A stretch of 63,722 bases of DNA, the filler included, from Microthyrium microscopicum (taxonomy: Eukaryota), in assembly GCA_010405405.1 (NCBI GenBank). It is 26 parts of 25 records of this genome, joined end to end, with 100 filler letters (N's around TTAATTAATTAA, not from the genome) between each part and the next. Parts side by side here need not be neighbours in the genome. Positions count along the whole stretch, not along the records: positions 17,660 to 24,303 come from MU004255.1; 25 more parts are not named here. One strand, given 5' to 3'. This document shows positions 8,313 to 46,390 of this stretch, in pieces (position 1 is the first letter of the stretch; every line of letters begins with the position of its first letter). A program made the translations under genes and the position numbers. The notes under the pieces were generated by a model. That model was given only the letters and a program-made list of their open reading frames with translations. It did no database searches and was not told the origin of the DNA.

Positions 8313-10754
8313 ACTACTACCTTATATACTACTCTAAATATTTATAAGAGCTATAAGTCTAGTACCTAATACTTATAGTAGCCTAGCTAGAAGTTCTATT
8401 AGTATTTATAATTTAGGTATAGCTAAAGATATAGTAAAGAGATTAGGTAGCTTAAAGCTACTTAATAGTATACTAAATAGATTTACTACTATAACTAATA
8501 CTTAAGCTAGAGTACTAAAAAGATTAAATACTATAATTAGTACTTATATAAAAGCTAGAGTAAGTACTTAAGTAAGTATCTAGGTAATAGATACTATAAG
8601 TTAAATAGCTAAGAGGCTAGACTATAGTTAAATATTAGTAGTAAAGTCTAATACTATAGCTAAAGGTACTAGCTAAGTAATTTTAGTAATTTTTTAAACT
8701 TTAATAACTAGATATTATAAAGTCTCTTTAATAGTAGTCTTAATAACTCCTAGCTTTATAAAAGTACTATTTACTTTTTTATTAGCTATACTTAGCTTTA
8801 TACTATTTTACTTACTTTTAAAGTTCTTAGTATTATTTATAGCTTCTTTTTTTTAGACTTTAAAGCTAGTTTAGAGTTCTTATATCTTTTACTTATACTT
8901 AACTTTAATCTTCTTTTTAGTCTTTCTAACTTATATAGTAATAGTTTGCTTAATAATACTTTTAATAGTATTATTAGTATTAATAAATATATAAATATCT
9001 ATAAGTATTAAAGTAGCTAAGTTTAAGAGTAATAAATTACTAAATAGCTTACTAATCTTAGAGTTCTTAGTTTTAGTAGGTTTAGAATTAGTAATAGGTA
9101 TTATAGTACTTAATTTAGATTTTAAAGCTTTTAGCTCTATTATATAACTAGCTTTAATATCCTTAATTACCTTTTTATTTTTAGCTTTACACTCTTATAA
9201 TTTAGTATTTAAGGTAGTTTTTATCTTTTTTATCTAAATCTTAAGTTTCTCTTTAGCCTAGCTTTTAAGAGACTTATAATATTCCTTTAATTTAGCTTTA
9301 TACTTAGCTACTTACTATTTAAGTTCTTATTTACTAAGTATAGGCTATCTATCTTTGCTATTAGCTAGTAGAGCTTAACTATTTAAAGTTATTATAGTAC
9401 TAATATAAGTAGTTTTAAGCTCTTACTAAGTAGTAGCTAATTAGGTATAGAAAGTATTAAGTTTTTTAGATAATAAGTTATTCTATATAAAAATATTAAC
9501 TTATTATAATTAAGTAATTTTAGTAGTAGTTAATTCTAGCTATTATTATAGTTCTAACTATATTAAGTTAGTAATTTATTCTAAGCTTATACTTATAGTA
9601 AAATAACTTATAATTTAACTTTAAAAAGCCTAGATATAATCTTAAACTTCTTAGCTCTTAACTTAAAGAATAATATATTATTATTACTCTTTCTTAATCT
9701 TAAACTTTATAGCTATAATTTATACTTTATAGGTAGTAATATTAATATTAGACGTATTATTATCTTTATTAATCTAATCTTCTTCTAATTCCTTAGTAGT
9801 AAAGATATAATTATATTTAATTTATATAGTTTATAGTTATTATTTAGTAGAAGAAAATTCTTTAGTAAGCTCTAATTTTTCTTTTTAAAGCTTCTTAATT
9901 TAAGTTTATAAGTCTATAATAATACTTTCTTATTCTTAGGCTTTATTCTTAGATTATTTTATAATTTTATTTCTATACTCTTAGAATTATATATTAAGCG
10001 TCTTAGTATTCTCTTAAATCTTAGTATTTATATTATTAGTAATAGTTTAGAGTACTTTCTTTTTACTAATAATAGTATTACGTTTAGTTTTAAGTTCTTT
10101 AATATAAGTTTTAAGTACTTTAAACTCTTAAGAATTAATATAATTATATTTTTAAAAAATATTCTAGATTTATTTTTAGGAATAGTTATAGTTCTTTTAT
10201 AGAAGTTTAATCTCTCTATCTTTATTCTCTATTTTATTCTTAAGTTTATTAATATAAGCCTAAAGTAGCTTAAGTTAAGTACTTAGTATCTTAACTTTTA
10301 TAATCTTTTTAGCTAGCTAAGCTTAAGCTTAATAGGCTTTAATATAAAGTAAAGTATTACTCTTTTAAAAGAGATTAAGTTAGTTAATTAACTTTATAAG
10401 CTTAATATAGCTTATAGTAGTCTATTCTTAGTCTAAATAAGATTAGCATTTATAGTTAAGTTTCTTATAAGCTTTATTAAGTTAGCTTTTAGTAAGCTTA
10501 TACTTTTACTTATAGTACTTATACTTTTAAGATAATAGTTTAAGTTATACTTTAATAATTTCTTTCTTATTCTTAAGCTAAGTAATAATCTTATTATAGT
10601 TATTATTATTAAATACTAGAGTACTTTATTAATTTATAAAAGATTTAGGTATAGGTTTTACTTACTTAAGAATAGTAATTAGGCCTCTAAGTATTAATAG
10701 CCTTTAGCTAGGTATAAAGATAAGTATTTTAAAAGTTAATATCTTTATAATAAG
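8313..10754. repeat. Heavily RIP-mutated AT-rich contig, identity not recognised
   Basis: Same CpA/TpG depletion; no ORFs in the track. Confidence 0.75.
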
Positions 10755-10854
10755 NNNNNNNNNNNNNNNNNNNNNNNNNNNNNNNNNNNNNNNNNNNNTT
10801 AATTAATTAANNNNNNNNNNNNNNNNNNNNNNNNNNNNNNNNNNNNNNNNNNNN

Positions 10855-11008
10855 TATTAGAAGATCACCAAAAGGGACAAAGGTTTGGTAGTAGAATATG
10901 AGATGGATTTTTCACTAAGTCCTCGATCTGAAGATCTGGGGGCTGTCTACTACTTATACAATTTGTGCTGAGTCAGCATATCTTGATGTTGTTCAACATC
11001 TTCAAACA
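10855..11008 (-). repeat. 3' LTR, complete, 154 bp (TGTTTGAAGAT...ATCTTCTAATA)
   Basis: Starts immediately after the PPT. Its distal 95 bp are repeated at 17465-17559 next to the PBS. Imperfect 11-bp terminal inverted repeats. Confidence 0.93.
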
Positions 11009-11017
11009 CTCCCCCTT
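11009..11017 (-). other. Polypurine tract (AAGGGGGAG)
   Basis: CTCCCCCTT on + strand directly abutting the LTR TG. Confidence 0.92.
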
Positions 11018-11163
11018 GATGGCGGCGCAAATTGCAATTTCCTTTTCATGTTTAGCGATACCAGCATACGACGCAAGTCGGTGTTGGCTGAATGAGGCGC
11101 TACCAGCATACGACGGAAGTCGGTGCTGGCTGTAGATAGGACGCAGGGGCAAGCTGTTGACGT

Positions 11164-14100
11164 TCAGGCGCGGTTTCCAAGATCCACAAGTCCAAGGTCT
11201 CTCACGAAGTTGTCGTATTTGATTGCGACCAGTGGCTTGGTAAGACCATCAGCAGTGTTGGCTGCTGTTGGCACCCAGTTCATGATGATCTCGCCTTTGG
11301 CGACTCGATCACGAACGAAGTGGTATCGAATATCAATGTGTTTCGATCTCTTGTGGAATTGAGGGTTCTTGGCTAAAGCCAATGCTCCGTAGTTGTCGCC
11401 ATTAATGGTTATGGCTGATGGGCCCTTGTAGCCAAAGGCCTTAAGCAAGCCTCGCAACCAGACGGCCTCTTTTGCGGCTTCAGATTCGGCAATGTATTCA
11501 GCCTCGCAACTGGATAAAGCCACTGTTGCTTGACGCTTCGAGCTCCAGCTGATAGCCATGCCTCCAATTTTGAAGACATACCCACCTGTTGATCTCCGCT
11601 TCTCTTCATCACCACCCCAGTTGGAGTCAGTCCAGCCAATGAGGTCTACCTCTTTGCTGCTGTTCTTGATGACCAGTCCATGGTTCATGGTTCTTGAGAG
11701 GTATTTGAGGAGATGTTTGCCAGCGGCGATGTGGTGCTTGTCGGGATTGGCAGAGAAGCGACTCAGAACTGATATGGCGTAGCAAAGATCAGGCCTGGTG
11801 CAGAGCATGAGGTACATTACGGAGCCTACTAGCGATTGGTACCATTTGAGGTCCTTGTCGGAGGCTTTGTGTCCTTCTGGAGCTGAGACCAGCTTGCAGT
11901 TTTCAAGCATGGGAGTTTTGACCCCTTTGTCGATGCCGTCGAAGTAGAAGTCTTCGATGATCTTCTTGCAATAGGCACCTTGAGACATCGTGAGCCGTGT
12001 ACCGCGAGCGAGGTTCTCTTTGTGAATTTTGATGCCAAGATAGTGAGAGGCTTCTCCGAGGTCTGTCATCTCGAACTTGGCTGTGAGCTTTGACTTGAGT
12101 ATTTCGATGGCTTTGATATGTTCTCCAAAGATGAGGAGATCGTCAACGTAGACAGCAATGATGATGTTTGTCTTGTGATTGATGAATACACTTTCGTCGT
12201 ATTGACAGGGGACAAAGCCAAGTGCAGCCAGAGCTTTTGATAGGGTGATTTGCCAAATCCGAGGTGCTTGCTTGAGTCCATAAATGGCCTTGCGGAGCTT
12301 GGCCACCATGCCGGGTTGTTGTTCGTTGGGAGGAAGCTCCATGTAGACATCTGGGCAGTCGCCTTCGGTGTTGATATCTCCATAGAGAAATGCAGTCTTC
12401 ACGTCCATCTGGTGAACATGCCATCCTCGAAGTGTTGCTAGAGCAAAGAGTAGTCTCCAGCTCATTGATTTAACAACGGAAGCAAAGGTTTCGAAGTAAT
12501 CAACTCCGTAAGCTTGTTCAAAGCCGCGAGCGACCCAGCGTGCTTTCCAACGAATGATTTCCCCATCAGCGTCATACTTGTGTTTGAGGACATAACGACC
12601 AGAGACAATGTGGGCACCCTCTGGCCGAGGTACAACTTCCCATGTGCCGTTCTTTTTGAGGGATAGGCATTCATCGTTGACGGCGCTCATCCACTTGTCG
12701 ACATCTGGAGATCGGAGCATGTGGTTGTAGCTTTTCGGCTCGAGATGGTTGCGATCTTTTCCAAGCAGACAGAAGTTAGCTTGCTCGGCGATGAGGGCAT
12801 TGGCAATTGTTTGATGTTTTTCGGCCACAGCGAGTATTGCAATTCGCTGAGTGACATCCTTAAATGTAGTCTCGGACCAAGCTGGTTGGGGTTCCTGACT
12901 GAAGAGGGTGAGACAAGTGTCCCCTTCGTTATCTTGAACACGACGGATGAGTTCTCCGTCATGGGTGACCATGTCATCGTAAAGAGGAGACTGATTTGTA
13001 ACATCGTTCTCCCCCTCAAAGCAGTCTGCGGCTTTACGTTTTGAAGAACGCTCCCCCTCGAGGGAAGGAGAGGGTGACTTGTCGTGAAGATGAAGCTTGC
13101 ACAGGCTGGCAATAAGCACAGTGTAGTCCGTTTGGAGGACATTGAACATATGCTGAGGGAAGTCCGATGTCTCTGGGAAGATGTCTTCCTCAAAGTGCAG
13201 GTCTCGAACAATTTCCACAATCTTCTTATGGGTGTTCCAGACACGGTATTGATTCGAGGAGATTTGAACTCCAAAACCAGCTCTGCCGTAGCCAAGCAGA
13301 AAGCATTTCTCAGACCTTGGGTCGGTCTTTTTGAGTTGTTCACGAGGAACTGTCTTCCAGCATTGACAGCCAATGACTTTGAGGTTCCTCATGTCAGGCT
13401 TCTTGCCAAAGAATTTGAAGTAAGGGGATTTGCCGTCATTTGAACTTGTCGCAGCAATATTGCTGAGGACGGCGGCGGTGCTGATCATCTCTGTAAAGAG
13501 TGTCGGCGGAAGATTTGCATGGTATAGCAGAGCTCTGGCAACGTTACCAAGAGTCTGCATGCTCCTTTCGGAGACTCCGTTTTGCTCAGGATTGTACGGA
13601 GCTGTTGGTTCGGGGCGAATTCCACATTCACGCTGCATAACGTCCATGTCAACGTTGCGAAACTCTGAACCATTGTCATATCGCATGATCTTCACTTCAG
13701 CATCGTATTCCTTCTCAACCCATGTCTTCCATTCTTTGATGAGGAAGGGAACATTGGCTTTGCTGGTGGTGAATCGTACCCAGCGATAGCGAGAGTAGTC
13801 ATCAGTAATGACAAGCCAGTAAAGTTTCTGGCCTTTGCCGCTGGCGGCAGGGTTGGTGAACGGACCACCGAGATCCAAGTGAACTCTTTCGAGTCTTCTT
13901 GTGGCTCTGTCTTTGGCCGGCGAAGAGATATTGTTTCTCCGTTGGCTGGCCTTTTGACAAGCCTGACATCCCCCGATGTGGGTCCGAGTGAGTTTGATTT
14001 GGCCCTCAAGGGTCTTGCGAATACGGTTTTCACCAATATGGCCAAGTCGTTGATGCCACAGCTGGGCAGGCACTGCACGTTCCCTAAGCGTAAGAACAGT

Positions 14101-16722
14101 GTCTGGTGGTGGCTGATGAAGTGTATATAGCTGTTGGGTAAGACAGCTGGCAATGGCAATGAGGGAGCCGTTGTCGTGAAGGATTTGGGCCGTGGAGCCC
14201 TTGAACCATACACCAACGGAGGTCTCCAGGCCGTTGCGTGTGAGAAGGAGAGTTCTCAAGGAGATGATGTTGAACGAGAGTCCAGGGACGTAAGCAACGT
14301 TATTGAGAACGAATTGCTTATTGACACGAACCCCATTTTCATCGTCAACCCAGGTAGGAATGTAGGCAGTTCCAATGCCCATGATATCGACGCTGCCGCC
14401 GAGTCCGGTCAGTTGACCATTTCCAGGTCCTTCAGAGGTGAAACCATTTTTGAACCATGAGGAATCGCCAGTGACATGACGGGACGAGCCAGAGTCAAGC
14501 ACCCAGCCTTCTTTTGCCTTTGCGGCGTAGACCATTTGAATGTCCTTGTCGGCATTTATGGCAGAGAGAGCAATAGAGTTGACATGTTCAGTGACTTGGT
14601 CAATCATGATGTAGCATGAATTTGTCTCAGAGTCATCACCTTCGTTGTTAAAGGCTTCGTTGGTGATGCAGTTGACTTGACCTTGTTGATCATTGAAGTC
14701 TCGCTTGTCGACTTGTTGCTGACCGCGTTGAGCCCGATGAGGTGGGCCGGAAGGGCGACGCTGCTGAGGACGACCCTGTTTTGATCGATTTGACTGAGAG
14801 CGGCCTTGCTGAGGGCGGTTCTGCGAGGATGAGGCCCCTTTGACGTTGAAGTCGTTGGGCTTGTTCATGAGTTCGCGGGCGCGTTTCTCGATGAGCTCGT
14901 TCATCCGTTGTCTCTTGTCGAAGTGAGCTTTCTTGAGCTCAGCATTGGCGGGTCGGTCGAAGCAACCACCTGGACCATCAAAGTCGCCGTGGGACGACTG
15001 CTTGGGATGTTTTGGACATGACCTATTTTGCGACTTGTTATAGGCGGCGAGGGCAATGTCCGTTTCTTGCTTCAAGTCTTCCTCAGTGACTACCGTGTTG
15101 GCAATCTCATTGAAGTCGACGAGGGGTTCCTTGGCTGTGGGATCCCAGTACTTCTCATTTTGATGGAGAGGGGTGACCACATTATCCAGGACCGCAGGGA
15201 CGTTCTTCAGGAATAAGACGTTCCAGAAGCAGTCTGGTATCTCCCAACCTTCACCGAGGACACGGAAGTCATCCTTAAGTTCAAGGATGCTATCGCGAAG
15301 AGCAATTGCTGAACCATTTGGCCGTTGGGTGCAGTCTTGGAGCTTGTCGAAGATTCTTTTGACGTGGGCGAAGCCAGATGGTCGGTAGCGCACAGCAAGG
15401 AGTTCGAGGGCTTTTTGAGCGTTATCAAAGTCGACAATCTTTGACTCAACTTCGTTGTCGACAGCTTCTCGAAGGATTGCACAGGCCTGGCGATTAAAAT
15501 GATGCCAGTAGTCCTTGTTCCCCTTGCTGCCGTTGAGGAGATGGGCCTCTGAGCCATCGAACCAGCCCCAGAGATTGCCTTCCTTCGCAATGTTGCGGAA
15601 ACGAGTCCTCCAGAGCTTCCAGTTCAGTGAGCCAATGAGGCGTTCGTACTTCGTTGATCGAATCGCCTTTTTGATAGACTCAGGAGTTGGCCTGGTCTCA
15701 TCAGTAGAGAGAACTTTGGAGGCGTCAGTTCCGGTTGGAGCAGGTGTGCCAGTTGGAGCAGGTGTGCCAAGATTAATGGCTGCGGAGCGGCTGGTCCCAG
15801 GGCCTGTTGAGCCGGTGGCCTTCAAGGCAGAGAGTTCAGCGGTGAGTTCCTCGCGGATCTTCTCAGTTTGAGAGGCGAGGGCTTGATCGATGAGTTGCTG
15901 TATTAGCTCTGGATCCATCGCGGACCCGGAATTGGGCTTGGCTTTGTTTGCCTTGCTCTTCCGTTTGTTGGTATTGGTCGGCTCAATGTTGTCCGCGGGG
16001 GCCTTTCTTTTATTGCGAGTGTTGGGAGCCATTGGGTTAGTGATGAGTTCTTCTGGTTGATCAATCTCGCCAGAGTCGGACACAGGAGACGGGGCACGGG
16101 GTAATGATTTGTTGACTTGTGAATTTGAGGAGTCTGAGGAGTCTGAGGAATCTGAGGAATCTGAATCTGATGATGAGTCCACTGGATCCTCTGTGGGAGC
16201 GGCGGCTTTTATGCCCTTCGCTGGAGGTGTTTTCCCCCTGAAGAGTTCGTCGTCCAACTCCTGTGGAGATTGAGAGTCTTGCTCCTTTCTTCCACCGTTC
16301 GCTCCAGGCTGTTCGTCGTCAGTGTCACCGTCGTTGTCGGCGAAGCATTCGTCTAGTGGTTTCAATGTTGATACACTATCGACGGCAGCACTTCCGGCTG
16401 AGGTGCTGTTCAAGGGTTGATTGGACGTAAGCTTGAGTCGGTTATACTCATTCGCGTCTTGAATTGTTTCTGCCTTGGATTTAGCTTGCTCCTTTCCTTC
16501 GTCGGTTTGACGGTGAGCCTCAGCTTTGCGACGCTCGCTCTCGATGTGGAGATTGGCGAAGTAGTTGTCAGTGGTGTCCTTAACCTTCTGTCGAACTGCG
16601 TCGTTATGTGCCTTCTTGGCAGCGAGCTGTGCTTTTGTGGCTGCTTTTGCAGCTTTCTCAGTGGCCTTTCGAGCCTTTTCGGCATCTTTGGCGGATTTGT
16701 CATTGTCAAGGCGTTTTGTCAT
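11164..16722 (-). CDS. Ty1/copia Gag-Pol polyprotein (1852 aa from first in-frame ATG; frame open from TTG at 16758)
   Basis: Gag motif LIGSLNWKLWRTRF..LWGWFDG; protease WVLDSGSSRH; IN zinc finger LWHQRLGH..CQAC; IN core VHLDLGGP/RYDNGSEF/PEQNGVSER; RT QMDVKTAFL, LKQAPRIW, YVDDLL; RNase H TDSNW, SSCEAEY, KHIDIRYHF, ADGLTK. Confidence 0.96.
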   Translation of the reverse strand: MTKRLDNDKSAKDAEKARKATEKAAKAATKAQLAAKKAHNDAVRQKVKDTTDNYFANLHIESERRKAEAHRQTDEGKEQAKSKAETIQDANEYNRLKLTSNQPLNSTSAGSAAVDSVSTLKPLDECFADNDGDTDDEQPGANGGRKEQDSQSPQELDDELFRGKTPPAKGIKAAAPTEDPVDSSSDSDSSDSSDSSDSSNSQVNKSLPRAPSPVSDSGEIDQPEELITNPMAPNTRNKRKAPADNIEPTNTNKRKSKANKAKPNSGSAMDPELIQQLIDQALASQTEKIREELTAELSALKATGSTGPGTSRSAAINLGTPAPTGTPAPTGTDASKVLSTDETRPTPESIKKAIRSTKYERLIGSLNWKLWRTRFRNIAKEGNLWGWFDGSEAHLLNGSKGNKDYWHHFNRQACAILREAVDNEVESKIVDFDNAQKALELLAVRYRPSGFAHVKRIFDKLQDCTQRPNGSAIALRDSILELKDDFRVLGEGWEIPDCFWNVLFLKNVPAVLDNVVTPLHQNEKYWDPTAKEPLVDFNEIANTVVTEEDLKQETDIALAAYNKSQNRSCPKHPKQSSHGDFDGPGGCFDRPANAELKKAHFDKRQRMNELIEKRARELMNKPNDFNVKGASSSQNRPQQGRSQSNRSKQGRPQQRRPSGPPHRAQRGQQQVDKRDFNDQQGQVNCITNEAFNNEGDDSETNSCYIMIDQVTEHVNSIALSAINADKDIQMVYAAKAKEGWVLDSGSSRHVTGDSSWFKNGFTSEGPGNGQLTGLGGSVDIMGIGTAYIPTWVDDENGVRVNKQFVLNNVAYVPGLSFNIISLRTLLLTRNGLETSVGVWFKGSTAQILHDNGSLIAIASCLTQQLYTLHQPPPDTVLTLRERAVPAQLWHQRLGHIGENRIRKTLEGQIKLTRTHIGGCQACQKASQRRNNISSPAKDRATRRLERVHLDLGGPFTNPAASGKGQKLYWLVITDDYSRYRWVRFTTSKANVPFLIKEWKTWVEKEYDAEVKIMRYDNGSEFRNVDMDVMQRECGIRPEPTAPYNPEQNGVSERSMQTLGNVARALLYHANLPPTLFTEMISTAAVLSNIAATSSNDGKSPYFKFFGKKPDMRNLKVIGCQCWKTVPREQLKKTDPRSEKCFLLGYGRAGFGVQISSNQYRVWNTHKKIVEIVRDLHFEEDIFPETSDFPQHMFNVLQTDYTVLIASLCKLHLHDKSPSPSLEGERSSKRKAADCFEGENDVTNQSPLYDDMVTHDGELIRRVQDNEGDTCLTLFSQEPQPAWSETTFKDVTQRIAILAVAEKHQTIANALIAEQANFCLLGKDRNHLEPKSYNHMLRSPDVDKWMSAVNDECLSLKKNGTWEVVPRPEGAHIVSGRYVLKHKYDADGEIIRWKARWVARGFEQAYGVDYFETFASVVKSMSWRLLFALATLRGWHVHQMDVKTAFLYGDINTEGDCPDVYMELPPNEQQPGMVAKLRKAIYGLKQAPRIWQITLSKALAALGFVPCQYDESVFINHKTNIIIAVYVDDLLIFGEHIKAIEILKSKLTAKFEMTDLGEASHYLGIKIHKENLARGTRLTMSQGAYCKKIIEDFYFDGIDKGVKTPMLENCKLVSAPEGHKASDKDLKWYQSLVGSVMYLMLCTRPDLCYAISVLSRFSANPDKHHIAAGKHLLKYLSRTMNHGLVIKNSSKEVDLIGWTDSNWGGDEEKRRSTGGYVFKIGGMAISWSSKRQATVALSSCEAEYIAESEAAKEAVWLRGLLKAFGYKGPSAITINGDNYGALALAKNPQFHKRSKHIDIRYHFVRDRVAKGEIIMNWVPTAANTADGLTKPLVAIKYDNFVRDLGLVDLGNRA

Positions 16723-17450
16723 CTTGATGGCTACGTCTGGACGAAGGGATCTTGCCAAAGAGTAACTTGATGATCAAAAGCGAAGAAAGAATGATAGAGT
16801 AAAGTCTGTTTGATTTGCAAGAAGTGGTGTAGGTAGGAATGCTGTCTGCCAGCTCTCTATCTCACTTTGCCAGACGGTTTTTATACCCAAACTTTGCGGG
16901 ATTTTTGTCTTGTCTCTAAGGACGAATTGATTTGGCAGAGTTTTCATCTTGCAGGCTAATTTGGCAGAGTTTTTCATCTTGCCGGTTGATCTAGCAGAGT
17001 TTTCCTCTTGCTTTGGTTGCATAGTGGCATTTGACTCACTAAGTTACTGCAACGTAATACTCGGTATTCAGAGTTTTCCTCTTTTGATTGAATTTTCATT
17101 CAGAGTTTTCCTCTTGTTGAGGGGTGAAGCTTGTTGCTCAGTGACAACAGCGGTGTTCTATGCGTGGTTAGTGGGAACTGGCCTATGATAGGACCAAGAA
17201 CTTAGCGGTTATGCAGGGAGTATCCCGTTTGTGCAGATGAAGAATTTTTTTTTCAGTGTTCCATCCACCTCAGTAAGTGGTAAAACTTCTGCTTCGATAG
17301 TGGGCATCGCAGCCGGCCAAGGTAAATTGATGCTCGCTATCGTGAGAGAAAGGATAGTGATCGAGGCCGCCACTGGTTGGCGGCATCGTCGCGGAGGTAT
17401 GTTTGAACAACATAGCTTATGAGGAGAGCGGTAGTGGTGAACTGCGCACT

Positions 17451-17464
17451 CCGGGCTCATAACC
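17451..17464 (-). other. Primer-binding site GGTTATGAGCCCGG, complementary to the initiator tRNA-Met anticodon arm
   Basis: Directly adjacent to the LTR end. Same core as the PBS of yeast Ty5 and Drosophila copia (GGTTATGRGCCC). Confidence 0.9.
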
Positions 17465-17559
17465 TATTAGAAGATCACCAAAAGGGACAAAGGTTTGGTA
17501 GTAGAATATGAGATGGATTTTTCACTAAGTCCTCGATCTGAAGATCTGGGGGCTGTCTA
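17465..17559 (-). repeat. 5' LTR of copy A, partial (95 bp)
   Basis: Matches 10855-10949. Confidence 0.93.
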
Positions 17560-17659
17560 NNNNNNNNNNNNNNNNNNNNNNNNNNNNNNNNNNNNNNNNN
17601 NNNTTAATTAATTAANNNNNNNNNNNNNNNNNNNNNNNNNNNNNNNNNNNNNNNNNNNN

Positions 17660-17753
17660 AGACAGCCCCCAGATCTTCAGATCGAGGACTTAGTGAAAAA
17701 TCCATCTCATATTCTACTACCAAACCTTTGTCCCTTTTGGTGATCTTCTAATA
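17660..17753 (+). repeat. 5' LTR of copy B, partial (last 94 bp)
   Basis: Ends GGTGATCTTCTAATA immediately before the PBS; matches the distal part of the 154-bp LTR. Confidence 0.93.
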
Positions 17754-17767
17754 GGTTATGAGCCCGG
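17754..17767 (+). other. Primer-binding site GGTTATGAGCCCGG (half-tRNAiMet type)
   Basis: Abuts the LTR; reverse complement is CCGGGCTCATAACC, an anticodon arm containing CAT. Confidence 0.9.
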
Positions 17768-18102
17768 AGTGCGCAGTTCACCACTACCGCTCTCCTCATA
17801 AGCTATGTTGTTCAAACATACCTCCGCGACGATGCCGCCAACCAGTGGCGGCCTCGATCACTATCCTTTCTCTCACGATAGCGAGCATCAATTTACCTTG
17901 GCCGGCTGCGATGCCCACTATCGAAGCAGAAGTTTTACCACTTACTGAGGTGGATGGAACACTGAAAAAAAAATTCTTCATCTGCACAAACGGGATACTC
18001 CCTGCATAACCGCTAAGTTCTTGGTCCTATCATAGGCCAGTTCCCACTAACCACGCATAGAACACCGCTGTTGTCACTGAGCAACAAGCTTCACCCCTCA
18101 AC

Positions 18103-18441
18103 AAGAGGAAAACTCTGAATGAAAATTCAATCAAAAGAGGAAAACTCTGAATACCGAGTATTACGTTGCAGTAACTTAGTGAGTCAAATGCCACTATGCA
18201 ACCAAAGCAAGAGGAAAACTCTGCTAGATCAACCGGCAAGATGAAAAACTCTGCCAAATTAGCCTGCAAGATGAAAACTCTGCCAAATCAATTCGTCCTT
18301 AGAGACAAGACAAAAATCCCGCAAAGTTTGGGTATAAAAACCGTCTGGCAAAGTGAGATAGAGAGCTGGCAGACAGCATTCCTACCTACACCACTTCTTG
18401 CAAATCAAACAGACTTTACTCTATCATTCTTTCTTCGCTTT
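18103..18441 (+). promoter_or_regulatory. Putative internal promoter/enhancer in the 5' leader
   Basis: Five AAGAKGAAAA(A)CTCTG repeats (18103, 18135, 18209, 18238, 18268), TGAGTCA at 18180-18186, TATAAAAA at 18333-18340, pyrimidine tract ~18413-18441, then TCAAGATG start at 18496. Mirrored at 16777-17115 on the minus strand. Confidence 0.5.
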
Positions 18442-18495
18442 TGATCATCAAGTTACTCTTTGGCAAGATCCCTTCGTCCAGACGTAGCCATCAAG

Positions 18496-21400
18496 ATGAC
18501 AAAACGCCTTGACAATGACAAATCCGCCAAAGATGCCGAAAAGGCTCGAAAGGCCACTGAGAAAGCTGCAAAAGCAGCCACAAAAGCACAGCTCGCTGCC
18601 AAGAAGGCACATAACGACGCAGTTCGACAGAAGGTTAAGGACACCACTGACAACTACTTCGCCAATCTCCACATCGAGAGCGAGCGTCGCAAAGCTGAGG
18701 CTCACCGTCAAACCGACGAAGGAAAGGAGCAAGCTAAATCCAAGGCAGAAACAATTCAAGACGCGAATGAGTATAACCGACTCAAGCTTACGTCCAATCA
18801 ACCCTTGAACAGCACCTCAGCCGGAAGTGCTGCCGTCGATAGTGTATCAACATTGAAACCACTAGACGAATGCTTCGCCGACAACGACGGTGACACTGAC
18901 GACGAACAGCCTGGAGCGAACGGTGGAAGAAAGGAGCAAGACTCTCAATCTCCACAGGAGTTGGACGACGAACTCTTCAGGGGGAAAACACCTCCAGCGA
19001 AGGGCATAAAAGCCGCCGCTCCCACAGAGGATCCAGTGGACTCATCATCAGATTCAGATTCCTCAGATTCCTCAGACTCCTCAGACTCCTCAAATTCACA
19101 AGTCAACAAATCATTACCCCGTGCCCCGTCTCCTGTGTCCGACTCTGGCGAGATTGATCAACCAGAAGAACTCATCACTAACCCAATGGCTCCCAACACT
19201 CGCAATAAAAGAAAGGCCCCCGCGGACAACATTGAGCCGACCAATACCAACAAACGGAAGAGCAAGGCAAACAAAGCCAAGCCCAATTCCGGGTCCGCGA
19301 TGGATCCAGAGCTAATACAGCAACTCATCGATCAAGCCCTCGCCTCTCAAACTGAGAAGATCCGCGAGGAACTCACCGCTGAACTCTCTGCCTTGAAGGC
19401 CACCGGCTCAACAGGCCCTGGGACCAGCCGCTCCGCAGCCATTAATCTTGGCACACCTGCTCCAACTGGCACACCTGCTCCAACCGGAACTGACGCCTCC
19501 AAAGTTCTCTCTACTGATGAGACCAGGCCAACTCCTGAGTCTATCAAAAAGGCGATTCGATCAACGAAGTACGAACGCCTCATTGGCTCACTGAACTGGA
19601 AGCTCTGGAGGACTCGTTTCCGCAACATTGCGAAGGAAGGCAATCTCTGGGGCTGGTTCGATGGCTCAGAGGCCCATCTCCTCAACGGCAGCAAGGGGAA
19701 CAAGGACTACTGGCATCATTTTAATCGCCAGGCCTGTGCAATCCTTCGAGAAGCTGTCGACAACGAAGTTGAGTCAAAGATTGTCGACTTTGATAACGCT
19801 CAAAAAGCCCTCGAACTCCTTGCTGTGCGCTACCGACCATCTGGCTTCGCCCACGTCAAAAGAATCTTCGACAAGCTCCAAGACTGCACCCAACGGCCAA
19901 ATGGTTCAGCAATTGCTCTTCGCGATAGCATCCTTGAACTTAAGGATGACTTCCGTGTCCTCGGTGAAGGTTGGGAGATACCAGACTGCTTCTGGAACGT
20001 CTTATTCCTGAAGAACGTCCCTGCGGTCCTGGATAATGTGGTCACCCCTCTCCATCAAAATGAGAAGTACTGGGATCCCACAGCCAAGGAACCCCTCGTC
20101 GACTTCAATGAGATTGCCAACACGGTAGTCACTGAGGAAGACTTGAAGCAAGAAACGGACATTGCCCTCGCCGCCTATAACAAGTCGCAAAATAGGTCAT
20201 GTCCAAAACATCCCAAGCAGTCGTCCCACGGCGACTTTGATGGTCCAGGTGGTTGCTTCGACCGACCCGCCAATGCTGAGCTCAAGAAAGCTCACTTCGA
20301 CAAGAGACAACGGATGAACGAGCTCATCGAGAAACGCGCCCGCGAACTCATGAACAAGCCCAACGACTTCAACGTCAAAGGGGCCTCATCCTCGCAGAAC
20401 CGCCCTCAGCAAGGCCGCTCTCAGTCAAATCGATCAAAACAGGGTCGTCCTCAGCAGCGTCGCCCTTCCGGCCCACCTCATCGGGCTCAACGCGGTCAGC
20501 AACAAGTCGACAAGCGAGACTTCAATGATCAACAAGGTCAAGTCAACTGCATCACCAACGAAGCCTTTAACAACGAAGGTGATGACTCTGAGACAAATTC
20601 ATGCTACATCATGATTGACCAAGTCACTGAACATGTCAACTCTATTGCTCTCTCTGCCATAAATGCCGACAAGGACATTCAAATGGTCTACGCCGCAAAG
20701 GCAAAAGAAGGCTGGGTGCTTGACTCTGGCTCGTCCCGTCATGTCACTGGCGATTCCTCATGGTTCAAAAATGGTTTCACCTCTGAAGGACCTGGAAATG
20801 GTCAACTGACCGGACTCGGCGGCAGCGTCGATATCATGGGCATTGGAACTGCCTACATTCCTACCTGGGTTGACGATGAAAATGGGGTTCGTGTCAATAA
20901 GCAATTCGTTCTCAATAACGTTGCTTACGTCCCTGGACTCTCGTTCAACATCATCTCCTTGAGAACTCTCCTTCTCACACGCAACGGCCTGGAGACCTCC
21001 GTTGGTGTATGGTTCAAGGGCTCCACGGCCCAAATCCTTCACGACAACGGCTCCCTCATTGCCATTGCCAGCTGTCTTACCCAACAGCTATATACACTTC
21101 ATCAGCCACCACCAGACACTGTTCTTACGCTTAGGGAACGTGCAGTGCCTGCCCAGCTGTGGCATCAACGACTTGGCCATATTGGTGAAAACCGTATTCG
21201 CAAGACCCTTGAGGGCCAAATCAAACTCACTCGGACCCACATCGGGGGATGTCAGGCTTGTCAAAAGGCCAGCCAACGGAGAAACAATATCTCTTCGCCG
21301 GCCAAAGACAGAGCCACAAGAAGACTCGAAAGAGTTCACTTGGATCTCGGTGGTCCGTTCACCAACCCTGCCGCCAGCGGCAAAGGCCAGAAACTTTACT

Positions 21401-24054
21401 GGCTTGTCATTACTGATGACTACTCTCGCTATCGCTGGGTACGATTCACCACCAGCAAAGCCAATGTTCCCTTCCTCATCAAAGAATGGAAGACATGGGT
21501 TGAGAAGGAATACGATGCTGAAGTGAAGATCATGCGATATGACAATGGTTCAGAGTTTCGCAACGTTGACATGGACGTTATGCAGCGTGAATGTGGAATT
21601 CGCCCCGAACCAACAGCTCCGTACAATCCTGAGCAAAACGGAGTCTCCGAAAGGAGCATGCAGACTCTTGGTAACGTTGCCAGAGCTCTGCTATACCATG
21701 CAAATCTTCCGCCGACACTCTTTACAGAGATGATCAGCACCGCCGCCGTCCTCAGCAATATTGCTGCGACAAGTTCAAATGACGGCAAATCCCCTTACTT
21801 CAAATTCTTTGGCAAGAAGCCTGACATGAGGAACCTCAAAGTCATTGGCTGTCAATGCTGGAAGACAGTTCCTCGTGAACAACTCAAAAAGACCGACCCA
21901 AGGTCTGAGAAATGCTTTCTGCTTGGCTACGGCAGAGCTGGTTTTGGAGTTCAAATCTCCTCGAATCAATACCGTGTCTGGAACACCCATAAGAAGATTG
22001 TGGAAATTGTTCGAGACCTGCACTTTGAGGAAGACATCTTCCCAGAGACATCGGACTTCCCTCAGCATATGTTCAATGTCCTCCAAACGGACTACACTGT
22101 GCTTATTGCCAGCCTGTGCAAGCTTCATCTTCACGACAAGTCACCCTCTCCTTCCCTCGAGGGGGAGCGTTCTTCAAAACGTAAAGCCGCAGACTGCTTT
22201 GAGGGGGAGAACGATGTTACAAATCAGTCTCCTCTTTACGATGACATGGTCACCCATGACGGAGAACTCATCCGTCGTGTTCAAGATAACGAAGGGGACA
22301 CTTGTCTCACCCTCTTCAGTCAGGAACCCCAACCAGCTTGGTCCGAGACTACATTTAAGGATGTCACTCAGCGAATTGCAATACTCGCTGTGGCCGAAAA
22401 ACATCAAACAATTGCCAATGCCCTCATCGCCGAGCAAGCTAACTTCTGTCTGCTTGGAAAAGATCGCAACCATCTCGAGCCGAAAAGCTACAACCACATG
22501 CTCCGATCTCCAGATGTCGACAAGTGGATGAGCGCCGTCAACGATGAATGCCTATCCCTCAAAAAGAACGGCACATGGGAAGTTGTACCTCGGCCAGAGG
22601 GTGCCCACATTGTCTCTGGTCGTTATGTCCTCAAACACAAGTATGACGCTGATGGGGAAATCATTCGTTGGAAAGCACGCTGGGTCGCTCGCGGCTTTGA
22701 ACAAGCTTACGGAGTTGATTACTTCGAAACCTTTGCTTCCGTTGTTAAATCAATGAGCTGGAGACTACTCTTTGCTCTAGCAACACTTCGAGGATGGCAT
22801 GTTCACCAGATGGACGTGAAGACTGCATTTCTCTATGGAGATATCAACACCGAAGGCGACTGCCCAGATGTCTACATGGAGCTTCCTCCCAACGAACAAC
22901 AACCCGGCATGGTGGCCAAGCTCCGCAAGGCCATTTATGGACTCAAGCAAGCACCTCGGATTTGGCAAATCACCCTATCAAAAGCTCTGGCTGCACTTGG
23001 CTTTGTCCCCTGTCAATACGACGAAAGTGTATTCATCAATCACAAGACAAACATCATCATTGCTGTCTACGTTGACGATCTCCTCATCTTTGGAGAACAT
23101 ATCAAAGCCATCGAAATACTCAAGTCAAAGCTCACAGCCAAGTTCGAGATGACAGACCTCGGAGAAGCCTCTCACTATCTTGGCATCAAAATTCACAAAG
23201 AGAACCTCGCTCGCGGTACACGGCTCACGATGTCTCAAGGTGCCTATTGCAAGAAGATCATCGAAGACTTCTACTTCGACGGCATCGACAAAGGGGTCAA
23301 AACTCCCATGCTTGAAAACTGCAAGCTGGTCTCAGCTCCAGAAGGACACAAAGCCTCCGACAAGGACCTCAAATGGTACCAATCGCTAGTAGGCTCCGTA
23401 ATGTACCTCATGCTCTGCACCAGGCCTGATCTTTGCTACGCCATATCAGTTCTGAGTCGCTTCTCTGCCAATCCCGACAAGCACCACATCGCCGCTGGCA
23501 AACATCTCCTCAAATACCTCTCAAGAACCATGAACCATGGACTGGTCATCAAGAACAGCAGCAAAGAGGTAGACCTCATTGGCTGGACTGACTCCAACTG
23601 GGGTGGTGATGAAGAGAAGCGGAGATCAACAGGTGGGTATGTCTTCAAAATTGGAGGCATGGCTATCAGCTGGAGCTCGAAGCGTCAAGCAACAGTGGCT
23701 TTATCCAGTTGCGAGGCTGAATACATTGCCGAATCTGAAGCCGCAAAAGAGGCCGTCTGGTTGCGAGGCTTGCTTAAGGCCTTTGGCTACAAGGGCCCAT
23801 CAGCCATAACCATTAATGGCGACAACTACGGAGCATTGGCTTTAGCCAAGAACCCTCAATTCCACAAGAGATCGAAACACATTGATATTCGATACCACTT
23901 CGTTCGTGATCGAGTCGCCAAAGGCGAGATCATCATGAACTGGGTGCCAACAGCAGCCAACACTGCTGATGGTCTTACCAAGCCACTGGTCGCAATCAAA
24001 TACGACAACTTCGTGAGAGACCTTGGACTTGTGGATCTTGGAAACCGCGCCTGA
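18496..24054 (+). CDS. Ty1/copia Gag-Pol polyprotein (1852 aa from first in-frame ATG; frame open from TTG at 18460)
   Basis: Same motifs as copy A: Gag, aspartic protease DSG, HHCC + DDE integrase, RT YVDD, RNase H. No stops or frameshifts. Confidence 0.96.
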   Translation: MTKRLDNDKSAKDAEKARKATEKAAKAATKAQLAAKKAHNDAVRQKVKDTTDNYFANLHIESERRKAEAHRQTDEGKEQAKSKAETIQDANEYNRLKLTSNQPLNSTSAGSAAVDSVSTLKPLDECFADNDGDTDDEQPGANGGRKEQDSQSPQELDDELFRGKTPPAKGIKAAAPTEDPVDSSSDSDSSDSSDSSDSSNSQVNKSLPRAPSPVSDSGEIDQPEELITNPMAPNTRNKRKAPADNIEPTNTNKRKSKANKAKPNSGSAMDPELIQQLIDQALASQTEKIREELTAELSALKATGSTGPGTSRSAAINLGTPAPTGTPAPTGTDASKVLSTDETRPTPESIKKAIRSTKYERLIGSLNWKLWRTRFRNIAKEGNLWGWFDGSEAHLLNGSKGNKDYWHHFNRQACAILREAVDNEVESKIVDFDNAQKALELLAVRYRPSGFAHVKRIFDKLQDCTQRPNGSAIALRDSILELKDDFRVLGEGWEIPDCFWNVLFLKNVPAVLDNVVTPLHQNEKYWDPTAKEPLVDFNEIANTVVTEEDLKQETDIALAAYNKSQNRSCPKHPKQSSHGDFDGPGGCFDRPANAELKKAHFDKRQRMNELIEKRARELMNKPNDFNVKGASSSQNRPQQGRSQSNRSKQGRPQQRRPSGPPHRAQRGQQQVDKRDFNDQQGQVNCITNEAFNNEGDDSETNSCYIMIDQVTEHVNSIALSAINADKDIQMVYAAKAKEGWVLDSGSSRHVTGDSSWFKNGFTSEGPGNGQLTGLGGSVDIMGIGTAYIPTWVDDENGVRVNKQFVLNNVAYVPGLSFNIISLRTLLLTRNGLETSVGVWFKGSTAQILHDNGSLIAIASCLTQQLYTLHQPPPDTVLTLRERAVPAQLWHQRLGHIGENRIRKTLEGQIKLTRTHIGGCQACQKASQRRNNISSPAKDRATRRLERVHLDLGGPFTNPAASGKGQKLYWLVITDDYSRYRWVRFTTSKANVPFLIKEWKTWVEKEYDAEVKIMRYDNGSEFRNVDMDVMQRECGIRPEPTAPYNPEQNGVSERSMQTLGNVARALLYHANLPPTLFTEMISTAAVLSNIAATSSNDGKSPYFKFFGKKPDMRNLKVIGCQCWKTVPREQLKKTDPRSEKCFLLGYGRAGFGVQISSNQYRVWNTHKKIVEIVRDLHFEEDIFPETSDFPQHMFNVLQTDYTVLIASLCKLHLHDKSPSPSLEGERSSKRKAADCFEGENDVTNQSPLYDDMVTHDGELIRRVQDNEGDTCLTLFSQEPQPAWSETTFKDVTQRIAILAVAEKHQTIANALIAEQANFCLLGKDRNHLEPKSYNHMLRSPDVDKWMSAVNDECLSLKKNGTWEVVPRPEGAHIVSGRYVLKHKYDADGEIIRWKARWVARGFEQAYGVDYFETFASVVKSMSWRLLFALATLRGWHVHQMDVKTAFLYGDINTEGDCPDVYMELPPNEQQPGMVAKLRKAIYGLKQAPRIWQITLSKALAALGFVPCQYDESVFINHKTNIIIAVYVDDLLIFGEHIKAIEILKSKLTAKFEMTDLGEASHYLGIKIHKENLARGTRLTMSQGAYCKKIIEDFYFDGIDKGVKTPMLENCKLVSAPEGHKASDKDLKWYQSLVGSVMYLMLCTRPDLCYAISVLSRFSANPDKHHIAAGKHLLKYLSRTMNHGLVIKNSSKEVDLIGWTDSNWGGDEEKRRSTGGYVFKIGGMAISWSSKRQATVALSSCEAEYIAESEAAKEAVWLRGLLKAFGYKGPSAITINGDNYGALALAKNPQFHKRSKHIDIRYHFVRDRVAKGEIIMNWVPTAANTADGLTKPLVAIKYDNFVRDLGLVDLGNRA

Positions 24055-24085
24055 ACGTCAACAGCTTGCCCCTGCGTCCTATCTA

Positions 24086-24163
24086 CAGCCAGCACCGACT
24101 TCCGTCGTATGCTGGTAGCGCCTCATTCAGCCAACACCGACTTGCGTCGTATGCTGGTATCGC
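24086..24163 (+). repeat. Two 36-bp direct repeats (42-bp period) in the 3' UTR, each able to form a hairpin
   Basis: CAGCCAGCACCGACTTCCGTCGTATGCTGGTAGCGC and CAGCCAACACCGACTTGCGTCGTATGCTGGTATCGC. Confidence 0.85.
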
Positions 24164-24200
24164 TAAACATGAAAAGGAAATTGCAATTTGCGCCGCCATC

Positions 24201-24209
24201 AAGGGGGAG
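24201..24209 (+). other. Polypurine tract (AAGGGGGAG)
   Basis: Immediately precedes TG at 24210. Confidence 0.92.
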
Positions 24210-24303
24210 TGTTTGAAGATGTTGAACAACATCAAGATATGCTGACTCAGCACAAATTGTATAAGTAGTAGACAGCCCCCAGATCTTCAGATCGAGGACT
24301 TAG
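24210..24303 (+). repeat. 3' LTR of copy B, partial (first 94 bp)
   Basis: Begins TGTTTGAAG; reverse complement of 10915-11008. Confidence 0.93.
24240..24267 (+). promoter_or_regulatory. LTR U3 promoter elements: palindrome TGCTGACTCAGCA (contains bZIP site TGACTCA) and TATA-like TATAAGTA
   Basis: Motifs read directly at 24240-24252 and 24260-24267; mirrored at 10951-10978. Confidence 0.5.
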
Positions 24304-36771: not shown

Positions 36772-38784
36772 GTATTAACTAGGCTATAGAACTCTAGTCT
36801 TTCTTAAAGGAATTAGGATATAAATATAAGGTTAATTACTATTTTTGCTACTTCTACTTCTCTTTCCTTATATAATCTATAGGTTAGCTCTCTTTTTAGT
36901 GTACTTAGGTAGAGTCTTTACTAAATTATATTGCGAAGTAAGGTATTTACTTAGGGTTTAGTAGCTAATGCTACGCCTCCTTATTAACGATAGTAGTAGT
37001 TAAAGTCTTCTATTAATAGGATCTCTCCTTTTGTCTTATTAATTACCTTTATTAGTATTAGGCGTTTAGCGATATAGTTATAGTTACTTACTACTAGGCC
37101 TTTACTATATATATTAATAATTATTAGTATTATATATCTATACTAGAGGCGTAGTGTTAAGATAAATTAGTTATAATATCTTACTTACTAGTCCTCTATA
37201 TTAAGCGTTTTACTTATTATAAAGCATACTCTTAATTAATTATCCTAGTTATATATTAAAGTGTAGCTAAGAGGGTAGTACGTTCCCCTTAGCTTTATAA
37301 TTCCTTTAGGGTCTTAGACCGCTATAATTAGTTACTTAGTATTATTTAGTAAATTAAAGAATAGCCTTACTTCCCTTCTATTTAACTTTCTATAGTTATA
37401 TTATATAATATTAATACTATTTATCTAAGTCTATTGTTTAAATTTTGCTTATTTTATCGCTAGAGGTTAGCCTAAGGTTATCTACGGCCTATTCTACTCT
37501 TTTATAGTTATTTCTTTATTAGTCTTTTAAGGCGCTATCTCTTATAGTTTATAAGCTATTATTACTTCTATTAAAGTTAAATATACTTATAATTAATCTC
37601 TAAATGCCCTAGACTAGGTTATTACGTACCTTATTCTCTACTTCTTATAATGCTAATAGTCTTTTAAGGTTCTTAGTCTCTACTTTTCTTTTCTTTATAC
37701 TATTTACTATAGTATATTTGTTATTATCTATAAGCTAAATTAGTATAATTTAAGTAGACGTTATAGCTCTTATCTATTCTATATATTTTTTGTTTACTAC
37801 TTAGAATCCTTTTATACTCTTAAAGTAGGTTTAGTATACTTTATATATATTCTTTTACTATACGTAATATTTTTAGCCTTACTCTTTTTCTTCTTTTCTT
37901 TCTCTCTTATTATCTTTATAGTTAGAGTACTAAACTAGGCTCGTCTTAGTATAGTCCTTAGTATTGTAATTGCCTATATATTTACTATAGTTTAGTTTAT
38001 ACTAAGTATAAGCTATTTATATATAGCCCTAGACTTAGTAGTAGAAGCACTATTTAGTAATATATTTTAGGTTATATAATTTAGTAAAGAGCTCCTCCGC
38101 TTTAATAATGAACTTCTTTTAGATAACTTTATTTCTTATTATTATTATTAAGTAATATAGCACGAGTAATCCTTTAGTACGTACCTTCCTATACTTTTTT
38201 AGTTCTTCTTTTACTTATTTATACTTTATACCTCTATAGAGCTACTAAACTACTCCTATCTCTAGGCGTTTAAACCTTATCTTATTTCTATTAATTAGTT
38301 CTTTAATTAGTTTACTATTATCTATATTCTTACTATAAGCTACGTCTAGTTTAAGTAAAGTACTTAGGATCTTTACTAAATAGTCTTATTATAAGACCTA
38401 AACCTTATTTAAGCCTACCTAACGTAGCCTATTTTAAATATAATTCTTATCTAATTATATATTAACTATAATGTTAACGTTCCTGCTAGGTAGCAGCCTA
38501 ATAGCTATTGCCTATAAGATAGTTTTTTTAATCTTTTTAAATAGCTTTATCCTATTCTACTTATTTTCTTTTAATATATTTTTAACTACTTTTATAATAT
38601 TAATTTAGACCGTTAAGCTCGCGAAGAGGGCTTTTTAATTAAGGATTAGTAGGTTAGGTCCTTTTATGACCTTTGCCTAAAAGTTAAGAGTTATTTTAAT
38701 CTTAGTAATCTACTTTGTGATCGTATTAAGTTTTTAGTTAAAACGCGTCTTAAGATATGTTAGTAAAGGGGCTCTATTTATAGT
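36772..38784 (-). mobile_element. RIP-inactivated Tad1-like LINE: ORF1 zinc knuckles and start of ORF2 AP-endonuclease
   Basis: Minus strand K*CFYY*V*GYI*IAY and YSKYIGNYNTKDY (de-RIP to CX2CX4HX4C knuckles, ~37950-38055); LLIEDFNYYYR**GG (GDFNxHHxxWG, ~36975-37020). Confidence 0.72.
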
Positions 38785-44550: not shown

Positions 44551-46200
44551 ACTATAGTTAGATAATTAAGCCATAGTCTAGGAGACTATTTTAAGCCATA
44601 TAGTGCTTTATTTAGCTTACATACTTTATTTTTAGTATTTTCTATTATAAATCCAGTTAGTTATTCTAGATAAATATCTTTATCTATTTTAGCGTAAATA
44701 AATGCGTTTTTAATATCCTATTGCTATATTTCTAGATCTAGTAAATTACTTATAGAAAATAATATTCTATAAGCTTCTGCTCTACACGTAGATGCATAGG
44801 TTTCGTCGTAATCTAAACCTAGTTCTTATATAAATCCTTTTACTACCCATCTAGCTTTATATTTAACTAGATTATTAAGGACGTCTATTTTAATTTTATA
44901 CACCTAGCGACCTCTAAGAACCTTTAAATCTATAGAATAATCTACTAAATTCTAGGTCTTTTATAGTTCTAATTCGTCTACTTCAGCTTTTATAGCTTCT
45001 AACCATTTATTTTTATCTAAGCTTTTAATAGCTTAATTATATATTTTAGGTTCTTTATTTAGTAGATTACTTTCTATTATAATAAATACGTTATCTTCTT
45101 CTAAATTAGCTAAATCTAGGGTTGTATTATTATTAACAGCGGGTTTAATTATAATGCTAGCTATTTTAACTTAATTTTCTAAGTTATCTATTTTAATAAC
45201 GTTAATTTGATTAATATTATTTTCTGCTACTTTATTTTTTATAATAAAATCTATTAGCTCCTTCTTTTTATAGTTTTCTATATCATAAAGTTCTTATTTA
45301 TAGTATTTATTTTCAAATATAACTAAATCTCTAACCTATTAAGTAGATTTAGATTTAATATTATAGATTTTAAATATATTAGTACCTAGGCTAACTAGAA
45401 TTCTAGGTTTCACCTTAGAATCTAGCTTTTTTAAACCTATACTTTTATCTTTATATAAAACTATAGATCCAAAGATTTTTAATTAATCTAATTTTAGTTT
45501 TATGTTATATTTATACTTATAGGGTGTCTTATTGTCTAGGCTACTATTTAGCATTCTATTATAAATATAAACAGCTATTAGAGTAGCTTCTTCCCAAAAG
45601 GTTTTAGGTAGATTACTCTCTTTTAATATTGTGTTTATTTTAGTAACAATTATATAGTTATAAATTTCTATTATACCATTTTATTCATATATATAAGGAG
45701 TACTATATTCTTGTCTAACGCCTTCTTCTTTTAGAAAGTTATTAAGCTTTCTATTTTTAAATTCTTAACCTTCATCGGATTTAAAAGCAATTAATCTTCT
45801 TTTATTATTACTATTATTATAATAGTATTCGTTTTTAACTAAACGTTTAATTTCTACTATATTAGGATATATTTTATCCTTAGTACGTAGTAGACATATT
45901 TCTAGATATCTAGTAGCAACGTCTATAGCTAGTAGAATATAATGAAAACCATTAAAAGTAGTTAGATTTATAGGGCCGTATAAATTAGCTACTATCTTAT
46001 CTAAGAAGTATTTTAGTTTCTTTATTATATCTTTATTTTTGCAATTAGTTATTTTACTTTTAATACATATATTACATTTACTAGAATTAAATTTACCTAG
46101 ATTTACAATAGCTATTAATTTAGCTTTATATAATAGATATAATTTTCTACTAGAAGCGTGTCCTAGTCTTTTATGCCACACTAAGGCAGATAGCATTACT
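44551..46200 (-). mobile_element. Partially RIP-mutated Ty1/copia pol fragment (IN + RT), a different family from the intact element
   Basis: ORF remnant 45765-46196 VWHKRLGH..CNIC..NLYGP..FKSDEG; downstream RYKARWVVKGF, DYDETYAS, DIKNAF, KALYGLK*SPRLW with in-frame stops. Confidence 0.92.
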
Positions 46201-46390
46201 AGCTTTTTAGCTTTCTTTTTATTATTATTACTTATAATAGAAGTAGCTATTCTAGAAATAAAACAGTTCTCTACATCTAATTTAAGTAGGNNNNNNNNNN
46301 NNNNNNNNNNNNNNNNNNNNNNNNNNNNNNNNNNTTAATTAATTAANNNNNNNNNNNNNNNNNNNNNNNNNNNNNNNNNNNNNNNNNNNN

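Follow-up and report, generated by a model that had tools for sequence, protein, structure and literature searches.

A window of 63,722 nucleotides from the fungus Microthyrium microscopicum (GCA_010405405.1) carries, at positions 17660-24303 (MU004255.1), an intact and autonomous Ty1/copia long terminal repeat (LTR) retrotransposon that bears no repeat-induced point mutation (RIP) signature and that is probably multi-copy, very young and active. The window is not a chromosome segment, being made up of 26 contigs from an unplaced-contig bin joined by linkers of N44-TTAATTAATTAA-N44, so that the adjacency of contigs within it is without meaning. The explanation that we favour, and consider likely though well short of certain, is that a lone founder with LTRs near the RIP size limit amplified in vegetative growth after the last cross.

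Anatomy of the copia element

Counting two LTRs, the element measures 6.76 kb, with the following features between the two ends of the contig.

17660-17753, plus strand: 5′ LTR, last 94 of 154 bases, ending in ...CTTCTAATA with TA in place of CA; a second contig of the same element stops exactly here
17754-17765, plus strand: primer-binding site GGTTATGAGCCC of the half-molecule (anticodon-arm) initiator tRNA-Met type, directly after the LTR, by motif match
17754-17819, plus strand: leader hairpin able to fold over the primer site (z -2.40; 1 of 200 shuffles equally stable)
18103-18291, plus strand: 18-nt direct repeat, four times, in the 5′ leader (repeat families D1, D3 and D13)
18496-24054, plus strand: single unbroken gag-pol open reading frame (ORF), 1852 amino acids from the first ATG
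19552-20346, plus strand: Gag capsid-like region with an atypical knuckle, C-x2-H-x5-H-x8-C (20200-20256), from language-model neighbours and distant relatives
20713-20970, plus strand: aspartic protease (Pol_BBD, DSG; Pfam E 4.5e-13)
21088-22044, plus strand: integrase, with GAG-pre-integrase/HHCC, rve core D-D-35-E and SH3-like domain, from Pfam and motifs
22567-23313, plus strand: reverse transcriptase (RT) RVT_2, with QMDV and YVDD (Pfam E 3.6e-61)
23578-23994, plus strand: RNase H, limits approximate, with DEDD residues and ADGLTK, from motifs
24086-24163, plus strand: 36-nt direct repeat, twice, in the 3′ untranslated region (repeat family D6)
24201-24209, plus strand: polypurine tract AAGGGGGAG, immediately before the 3′ LTR; in relatives, too, TGTTG is preceded by a tract of this kind
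24210-24303, plus strand: 3′ LTR, first 94 of 154 bases, beginning TGTTTG; junction contigs depart from the LTR at the equivalent base

A preliminary description of this region had reported an uninterrupted gag-pol with all catalytic motifs, and the 1852-codon ORF bears this out. From stop to stop the frame is open for 1869 residues (18445-24054), and the catalytic residues are complete, with the DSG of the protease (D760), D1457 and YVDD (1542-1545) of the RT, the HHCC residues H907, H912, C936 and C939 together with D967/D1033/E1069 of the integrase, and D1716/E1759/D1793/D1842 of the RNase H. The domains follow one another in the copia order of protease, integrase, RT and RNase H, with an RT of the RVT_2 type. 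The Gag of the element matched no Pfam gag family, but copia gag clusters were among its language-model neighbours (0.89-0.92), and 14 distant relatives were found, seven of which were aligned, all with an elongated knuckle. In the element's protein the knuckle was not reported by Pfam zf-CCHC. About 350 low-complexity residues stand ahead of the capsid-like region.

The LTR is 154 bp long, running from TGTTTG (24210) to CTTCTAATA (17753). The matching LTR segments first seen at the contig ends are its last 94 bases, with which the contig opens, and its first 94, with which it closes; the LTR self-overlap is identical over 34 bp within 17660-24303 and over 95 bp within the second contig, giving direct LTRs at both ends. 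We take GGTTATGAGCCC to be the site of an initiator tRNA-Met half-molecule primer, on the strength of a motif match. The same primer-site motif was present in 19 of 79 related loci, drawn from a pol-alignment scan of metagenome contigs, where it is preceded by AACA in ten, by AATA, and so by a TA end, in six and by ATCA in three. These bases before the same primer site indicate that the LTR boundary is right and that the TA end is a shared variant. The termini are therefore TG..TA and not TG..CA, a known minority form that does not exclude membership of copia and that is reported for copia LTR ends in plants (10.1101/137141). With respect to priming, the same motif closes an oligonucleotide in a yeast Met-tRNAi paper, in a passage that does not name the target of the oligonucleotide (PMC11230868), and for Ty5 the primer is described as a half-molecule of initiator tRNA-Met (PMC13017519).

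A different LTR end, at TTCAAACA (17819), would yield TG..CA and 8-bp inverted ends. It was rejected because both contigs, as well as the junction contigs described below, break at the equivalent of 17753, with the primer site next.

RIP in the element and in the window

Sequence is classed as RIP-mutated when TpA/ApT exceeds 1.1, the (CpA+TpG)/(ApC+GpT) substrate index is below 0.75 and the composite index is above 0 (PMC10823647). The contig at 17660-24303, with a GC content of 0.499, falls on the unmutated side of all three, at 0.51, 1.38 and -0.87, respectively, which agrees with the normal CpA/TpG content first described for it. Only one other contig of the window has such a composition, both being about 50% GC with composite indices of -0.86 for 10855-17559 and -0.87 for 17660-24303. 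The remaining 24 of the 26 are AT-rich, with GC of 0.16-0.26 and composite indices of +1.03 to +1.96. Two regions served for comparison with the element.

10855-17559, minus strand: second contig of the same element, 100% identical, carrying the only whole LTR (10855-11008)
44551-46290, minus strand: copia relic of a different family, RIP-destroyed (composite index +1.03)

The 24 AT-rich contigs make the RIP history of the host plain, as does this relic, which is 25-33% identical to the element and has 14 stops, as counted by eye over two high-scoring segment pairs. The statement that every other transposon in the window is riddled with C-to-T stops holds in part; the 24 AT-rich contigs are RIP-like, but the second contig is an exception, and a transposon class was identified for just one of the 24 (44551-46290), the others showing RIP-type composition alone. 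Searches of the window with blastn, tblastn and two motifs turned up no RIPed copy of the element.

The second contig is 100% identical to 17660-24303 over 6644 bp on the opposite strand, and differs from it solely in the amount of LTR carried, beginning, in the orientation of the element, with the last 95 LTR bases and ending with the whole LTR. It is probably an assembly duplicate and is not taken to indicate a second locus, because assembly graphs would be expected to cut elements at LTRs in this way. A 13.4-kb inverted repeat spanning 10855-24303 was rejected, its centre being a contig linker. The breaking of contigs at the LTR had been read as the mark of a collapsed multi-copy repeat. 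The breaks are real, but as a sole argument for several copies they are weak, because the two LTRs of one copy already branch the assembly graph.

RIP is restricted to the sexual cycle and to duplicated DNA; it is efficient on repeats longer than about 400 bp and at times reaches ones as short as 150 bp, and transposable elements can proliferate during vegetative growth unmet by RIP (PMC10787394). The suggestion that the element actively evades RIP, through its sequence, its choice of targets or an inhibitor, went unsupported and has next to no likelihood in our view. Apart from intactness itself, it could draw only on the long N-terminal Gag extension, which has no known function. Against it, the substrate index of 1.38 indicates that RIP targets have not been shed, the element has no additional ORF of at least 150 codons outside gag-pol, and its body shows no divergence among copies (see below), so that it need not have survived any cross.

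Two observations concern the RIPed contigs themselves. The relic at 44551-46290 has the mildest RIP index among the AT-rich contigs, and perhaps represents the family hit most recently. The contigs at 36772-38784 and 62367-63722 have 464 bp in common at 84% identity, as copies of one older repeat family.

Copy number, insertion sites and timing of amplification

Nine sequencing runs contain the element, four of them from the probable source sample (0.97-1.00 of its words) and five under four other organism labels (0.33-0.89); none of those listed is on record as RNA. Four of the nine (X1, X5, X6 and X7) were compared as assembled contigs with 10855-17559, in a comparison reaching down to 85% identity, with matches below this, such as heavily RIPed ancestors, outside it. 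In X1, the probable source run, whose contigs total about 41 Mb, the element body was present as two pieces of 2848 and 3657 bp at depths of 1199 and 1195, both without a listed variant, and the LTR was present at a depth of 2186. Two contigs join the 3′ end of the LTR in this run, one of 48,952 bp at depth 329, with one substitution in its LTR, and one of 332 bp at depth 73, with one extra base. In X5, which carries another organism's label and is RNA by guess (as is the RNA status of X7 and X8), 30 of 30 bins were covered without a listed difference, the longest pieces at depths of 9,300-19,400; cover was deeper towards the 3′ end, and two different flanks were present at the 5′ end of the LTR. 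We have tentatively taken X5 to be the same fungus, in which the element would be strongly transcribed.

The variant-free body, at a depth above that of the junction contigs, together with two 5′ and two 3′ junctions, indicates several near-identical copies at different sites. Their number is approximate, at about 3.6 if the 48,952-bp contig is single-copy DNA. The characterization of the element as multi-copy and probably active is thus upheld by a body at about 1195 against junctions at 329 and 73 in X1, and by the very high depth and two upstream flanks in X5. The three flank stretches are 30-60% GC with CpA/TpG present, a composition unlike that of RIPed DNA, which places the insertions in unRIPed sequence. 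In X1, loose ends at 16126/16158 were set aside as a chance match to a 9-nt repeat. Of the insertion sites and target-site duplications that had been proposed for a search, the contigs yielded several flanks, but no target-site duplication was paired.

Several points weigh against several young copies and their transcription. Contig depth is not equal to copy number, and the 329x contig is a proxy for single-copy depth; with the 73x contig as the unit, the estimate becomes about 16 copies. Both junction LTRs in X1 are variants and may be older solo LTRs rather than the ends of full copies, and the LTR/body depth ratio, at 1.83, is below 2. Among the three flank stretches no target-site duplication (about 5 bp) could be paired. 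X5 is RNA only by guess and is labelled as another organism. The run depths cover the element contig 10855-17559 alone, and RIPed older copies were sought within the window.

Some of these points would fit one chromosomal copy with solo LTRs, the extra depth arising from unintegrated complementary DNA (cDNA), one-LTR circles or an LTR-sharing tandem array. An LTR/body ratio that does not reach 2 could be explained in this way, as could the non-integer ratio of 3.6, the variant LTRs at both X1 junctions and the very high depth in the probable RNA run X5. We nevertheless consider it highly unlikely, given the two distinct 5′ flanks in X5 and the two 3′ junction contigs in X1, and no two-LTR joint is among the listed junctions; the lower GC of the LTR could also reduce its depth. 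Still less probable is an origin of the contigs in a contaminant organism of the sequenced culture. Both element contigs do lie in the unplaced bin without flanks, other organism labels carry the sequence, and the same-run comparison leaves the AT-rich contigs aside, but a contaminant accords poorly with a depth of about 1195 in a run with about 41 Mb of contigs, with a 49-kb junction contig at 329x and with the presence of the element in all four runs of the probable source sample.

Three options had been offered for the intact state of the element, and amplification after the last RIP-competent cross fits best. As we envisage it, the founder would have been single-copy, with the 154-bp LTR as its sole self-repeat, and would have passed through crosses unharmed. 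A transcript from the 5′ LTR would give one Gag-Pol polyprotein, the anticodon half of initiator tRNA-Met and the polypurine tract would serve as primers for reverse transcription, and integrase would put the cDNA into the genome, following the chemistry of the copia family. Later, while the fungus was growing vegetatively and possibly in culture, the founder would have given rise to a small number of copies (about 3-4), inserted in ordinary unRIPed DNA; as they arose after the last cross, these would not yet have met RIP.

An intact young element in a RIP-scarred genome is a pattern already known in other fungi. In Podospora, crapaud has many full copies without RIP (PMC10787394), and in Zymoseptoria a copia burst from near-gene copies without RIP marks is tied to weakened RIP after loss of a methyltransferase (PMC9970103). 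In Colletotrichum higginsianum, old RIPed LTR elements stand alongside DNA transposons that amplified in a recent burst (PMC5576322). The Zymoseptoria tritici case, in which the methyltransferase is dim2, is also a precedent for a lapse of RIP in the lineage, for example through a duplication of rid that exposed the functional gene to RIP damage as well, with the copia burst as a symptom. This is distinctly unlikely, as a burst of few copies is small for a RIP-less genome, and it may be that neither RID nor DIM-2 is indispensable (PMC7882544). We give a slightly poorer chance to a version in which the host switched off its own RIP, a stray rid duplicate having drawn RIP onto rid, and the highly expressed copia was among the first elements released and is transposing now. 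If true, this would parallel for rid what happened to dim2 in Zymoseptoria, observed at its start and with a live fungal retrotransposon as reporter, and the importance of the element would be much greater if the RIP machinery of the host proved lost. Among the papers listed for the host name with RIP and for RIP loss through rid, supplements excepted, there was no report of this element or of self-inactivation of rid.

Relatives and comparison with known systems

The best eight of 966 pol matches, P0002-P0009, are 43-44% identical to the element, and the RT-RNase H of the best relatives is 53-56% identical; among shorter proteins the best match is 38%. A quick tree of RT-RNase H was built from 63 rows, comprising the element, 24 proteins hand-picked from 120 listed and 38 of the 79 loci, admitted by length, identity and stop filters. 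The element is sister to P0002-P0009 in this tree (Shimodaira-Hasegawa approximate likelihood ratio test 99), and the broader group to which they belong also takes in proteins of Seiridium and Blumeria. This metagenomic copia clade (P0002-P0009 for pol, P0153-P0161 for gag) also resembles the element in its gag motifs, including the elongated, clade-specific knuckle, but identity is limited to 44% in pol and 20-24% in gag. In the records of its members gag (about 400 aa) and pol (about 1100 aa) are two distinct proteins, whereas the element has one fused frame. The separate records suggest a frameshift, read-through or splice in these relatives. In most of the Gag relatives (P0153-P0161) the knuckle reads C-x2-C-x4-H-x8-C, and the element (20200-20256) has His for the second Cys; its low-complexity N-terminus is much longer than theirs.

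No donor-like sequence was present in the protein and metagenome collections searched, in which the highest identities were about 44% for pol and 56% for RT-RNase H, and the horizontal arrival suggested for the element has no positive evidence. A recent arrival from another fungus, followed by amplification, would account for the lack of a RIPed copy in the window, for all 17 matching contigs in X1 being at least 90% alike, and for near-identical DNA under four other organism labels. The likeness of the 17 records is, however, blind to heavily RIPed ancestors below 85% identity. In X6 and X7, both with a low share of its words, the element was present in fragments at depths of 3-7.5, which look like material carried over from one library to another or like traces of the organism, and X5 shows no listed difference, which would be expected of a single strain labelled in two ways. 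For this reason the other-organism runs were rejected as evidence of horizontal transfer, and we regard such an arrival as unlikely.

In Drosophila, copia uses half of initiator tRNA-Met as primer. Among copia elements primed in this way, yeast Ty5 (PMC13017519) and Osser, which is listed as a hemivirus (PMC6317226), resemble the element in the order of protease, integrase, RT and RNase H, in a single ORF, in short LTRs starting with TGT, and in a primer site right after the LTR and a polypurine tract. The element differs from this group in an LTR that ends in TA rather than CA, and in a Gag without a Pfam gag match, with the C-x2-H-x5-H-x8-C knuckle and a long low-complexity N-terminus. Kinship to hemivirus-like copia is judged here on the primer site alone, the tree containing no Ty5 or copia exemplar. 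The fungal clades GalEa and FunCo1 are similar in size and also have a single large ORF and short LTRs (PMC5445492), but the conserved hairpin site, QTDD and CQPEA of GalEa are replaced in the element by a primer site, YVDD and TRPDL, and the FunCo1 primer site matching an internal tRNA-Lys region is not present. Judged by the sequence features described in that paper, the element is neither GalEa nor FunCo1.

RLC_Deimos in Zymoseptoria tritici (PMC9970103) and Podospora crapaud (PMC10787394) are alike in forming near-identical, GC-rich and unRIPed copies of an LTR retrotransposon in genomes whose older repeats are RIPed, as in this host, a likeness of pattern only. They differ in having RIPed older copies and many more members, whereas few copies are indicated here, with no RIPed copy in the window. 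Plant copia elements with TG..TA termini (10.1101/137141) share those termini, short LTRs and flanks in non-repetitive DNA, but are described for plants, and the element is fungal by context.

In a fungus strongly scarred by RIP, the element makes a good candidate for a copia that is live at low copy number, and its lineage has no near relative among the proteins searched. With it one could ask whether an LTR of 154 bp is short enough for a lone copy to stay under the detection limit of RIP, and how a fresh burst fares when RIP meets it in the following cross. Elements of this kind come to lie among unplaced contigs, and TG..TA ends would escape LTR finders restricted to TG..CA.

In the leader, 11 nt at 17806-17816 are complementary to the start of U3 (24210-24232), resembling a 5′-3′ cyclisation signal. 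A conserved signal of this kind was rejected, as the relatives have a complement of 4-7 nt at best (13 of 19 with any candidate tract), and the leader hairpin was likewise not conserved in relatives. Rfam gave no matches at E up to 1. The short direct-repeat arrays in the 5′ leader of about 740 nt and in the 3′ untranslated region may be regulatory or packaging signals. Among the metagenome loci, L078 2951 and L002 28 have a primer-site leader in common and form an intact/RIPed pair of one copia family, L078 being RIP-like (index +1.1, no long ORF) and L002 intact (-0.16). Four copia-type polyproteins (P0024, P0034, P0038 and P0179) are listed with the chromodomain family PF00385 and gypsy-type gag families, which is unusual for copia.

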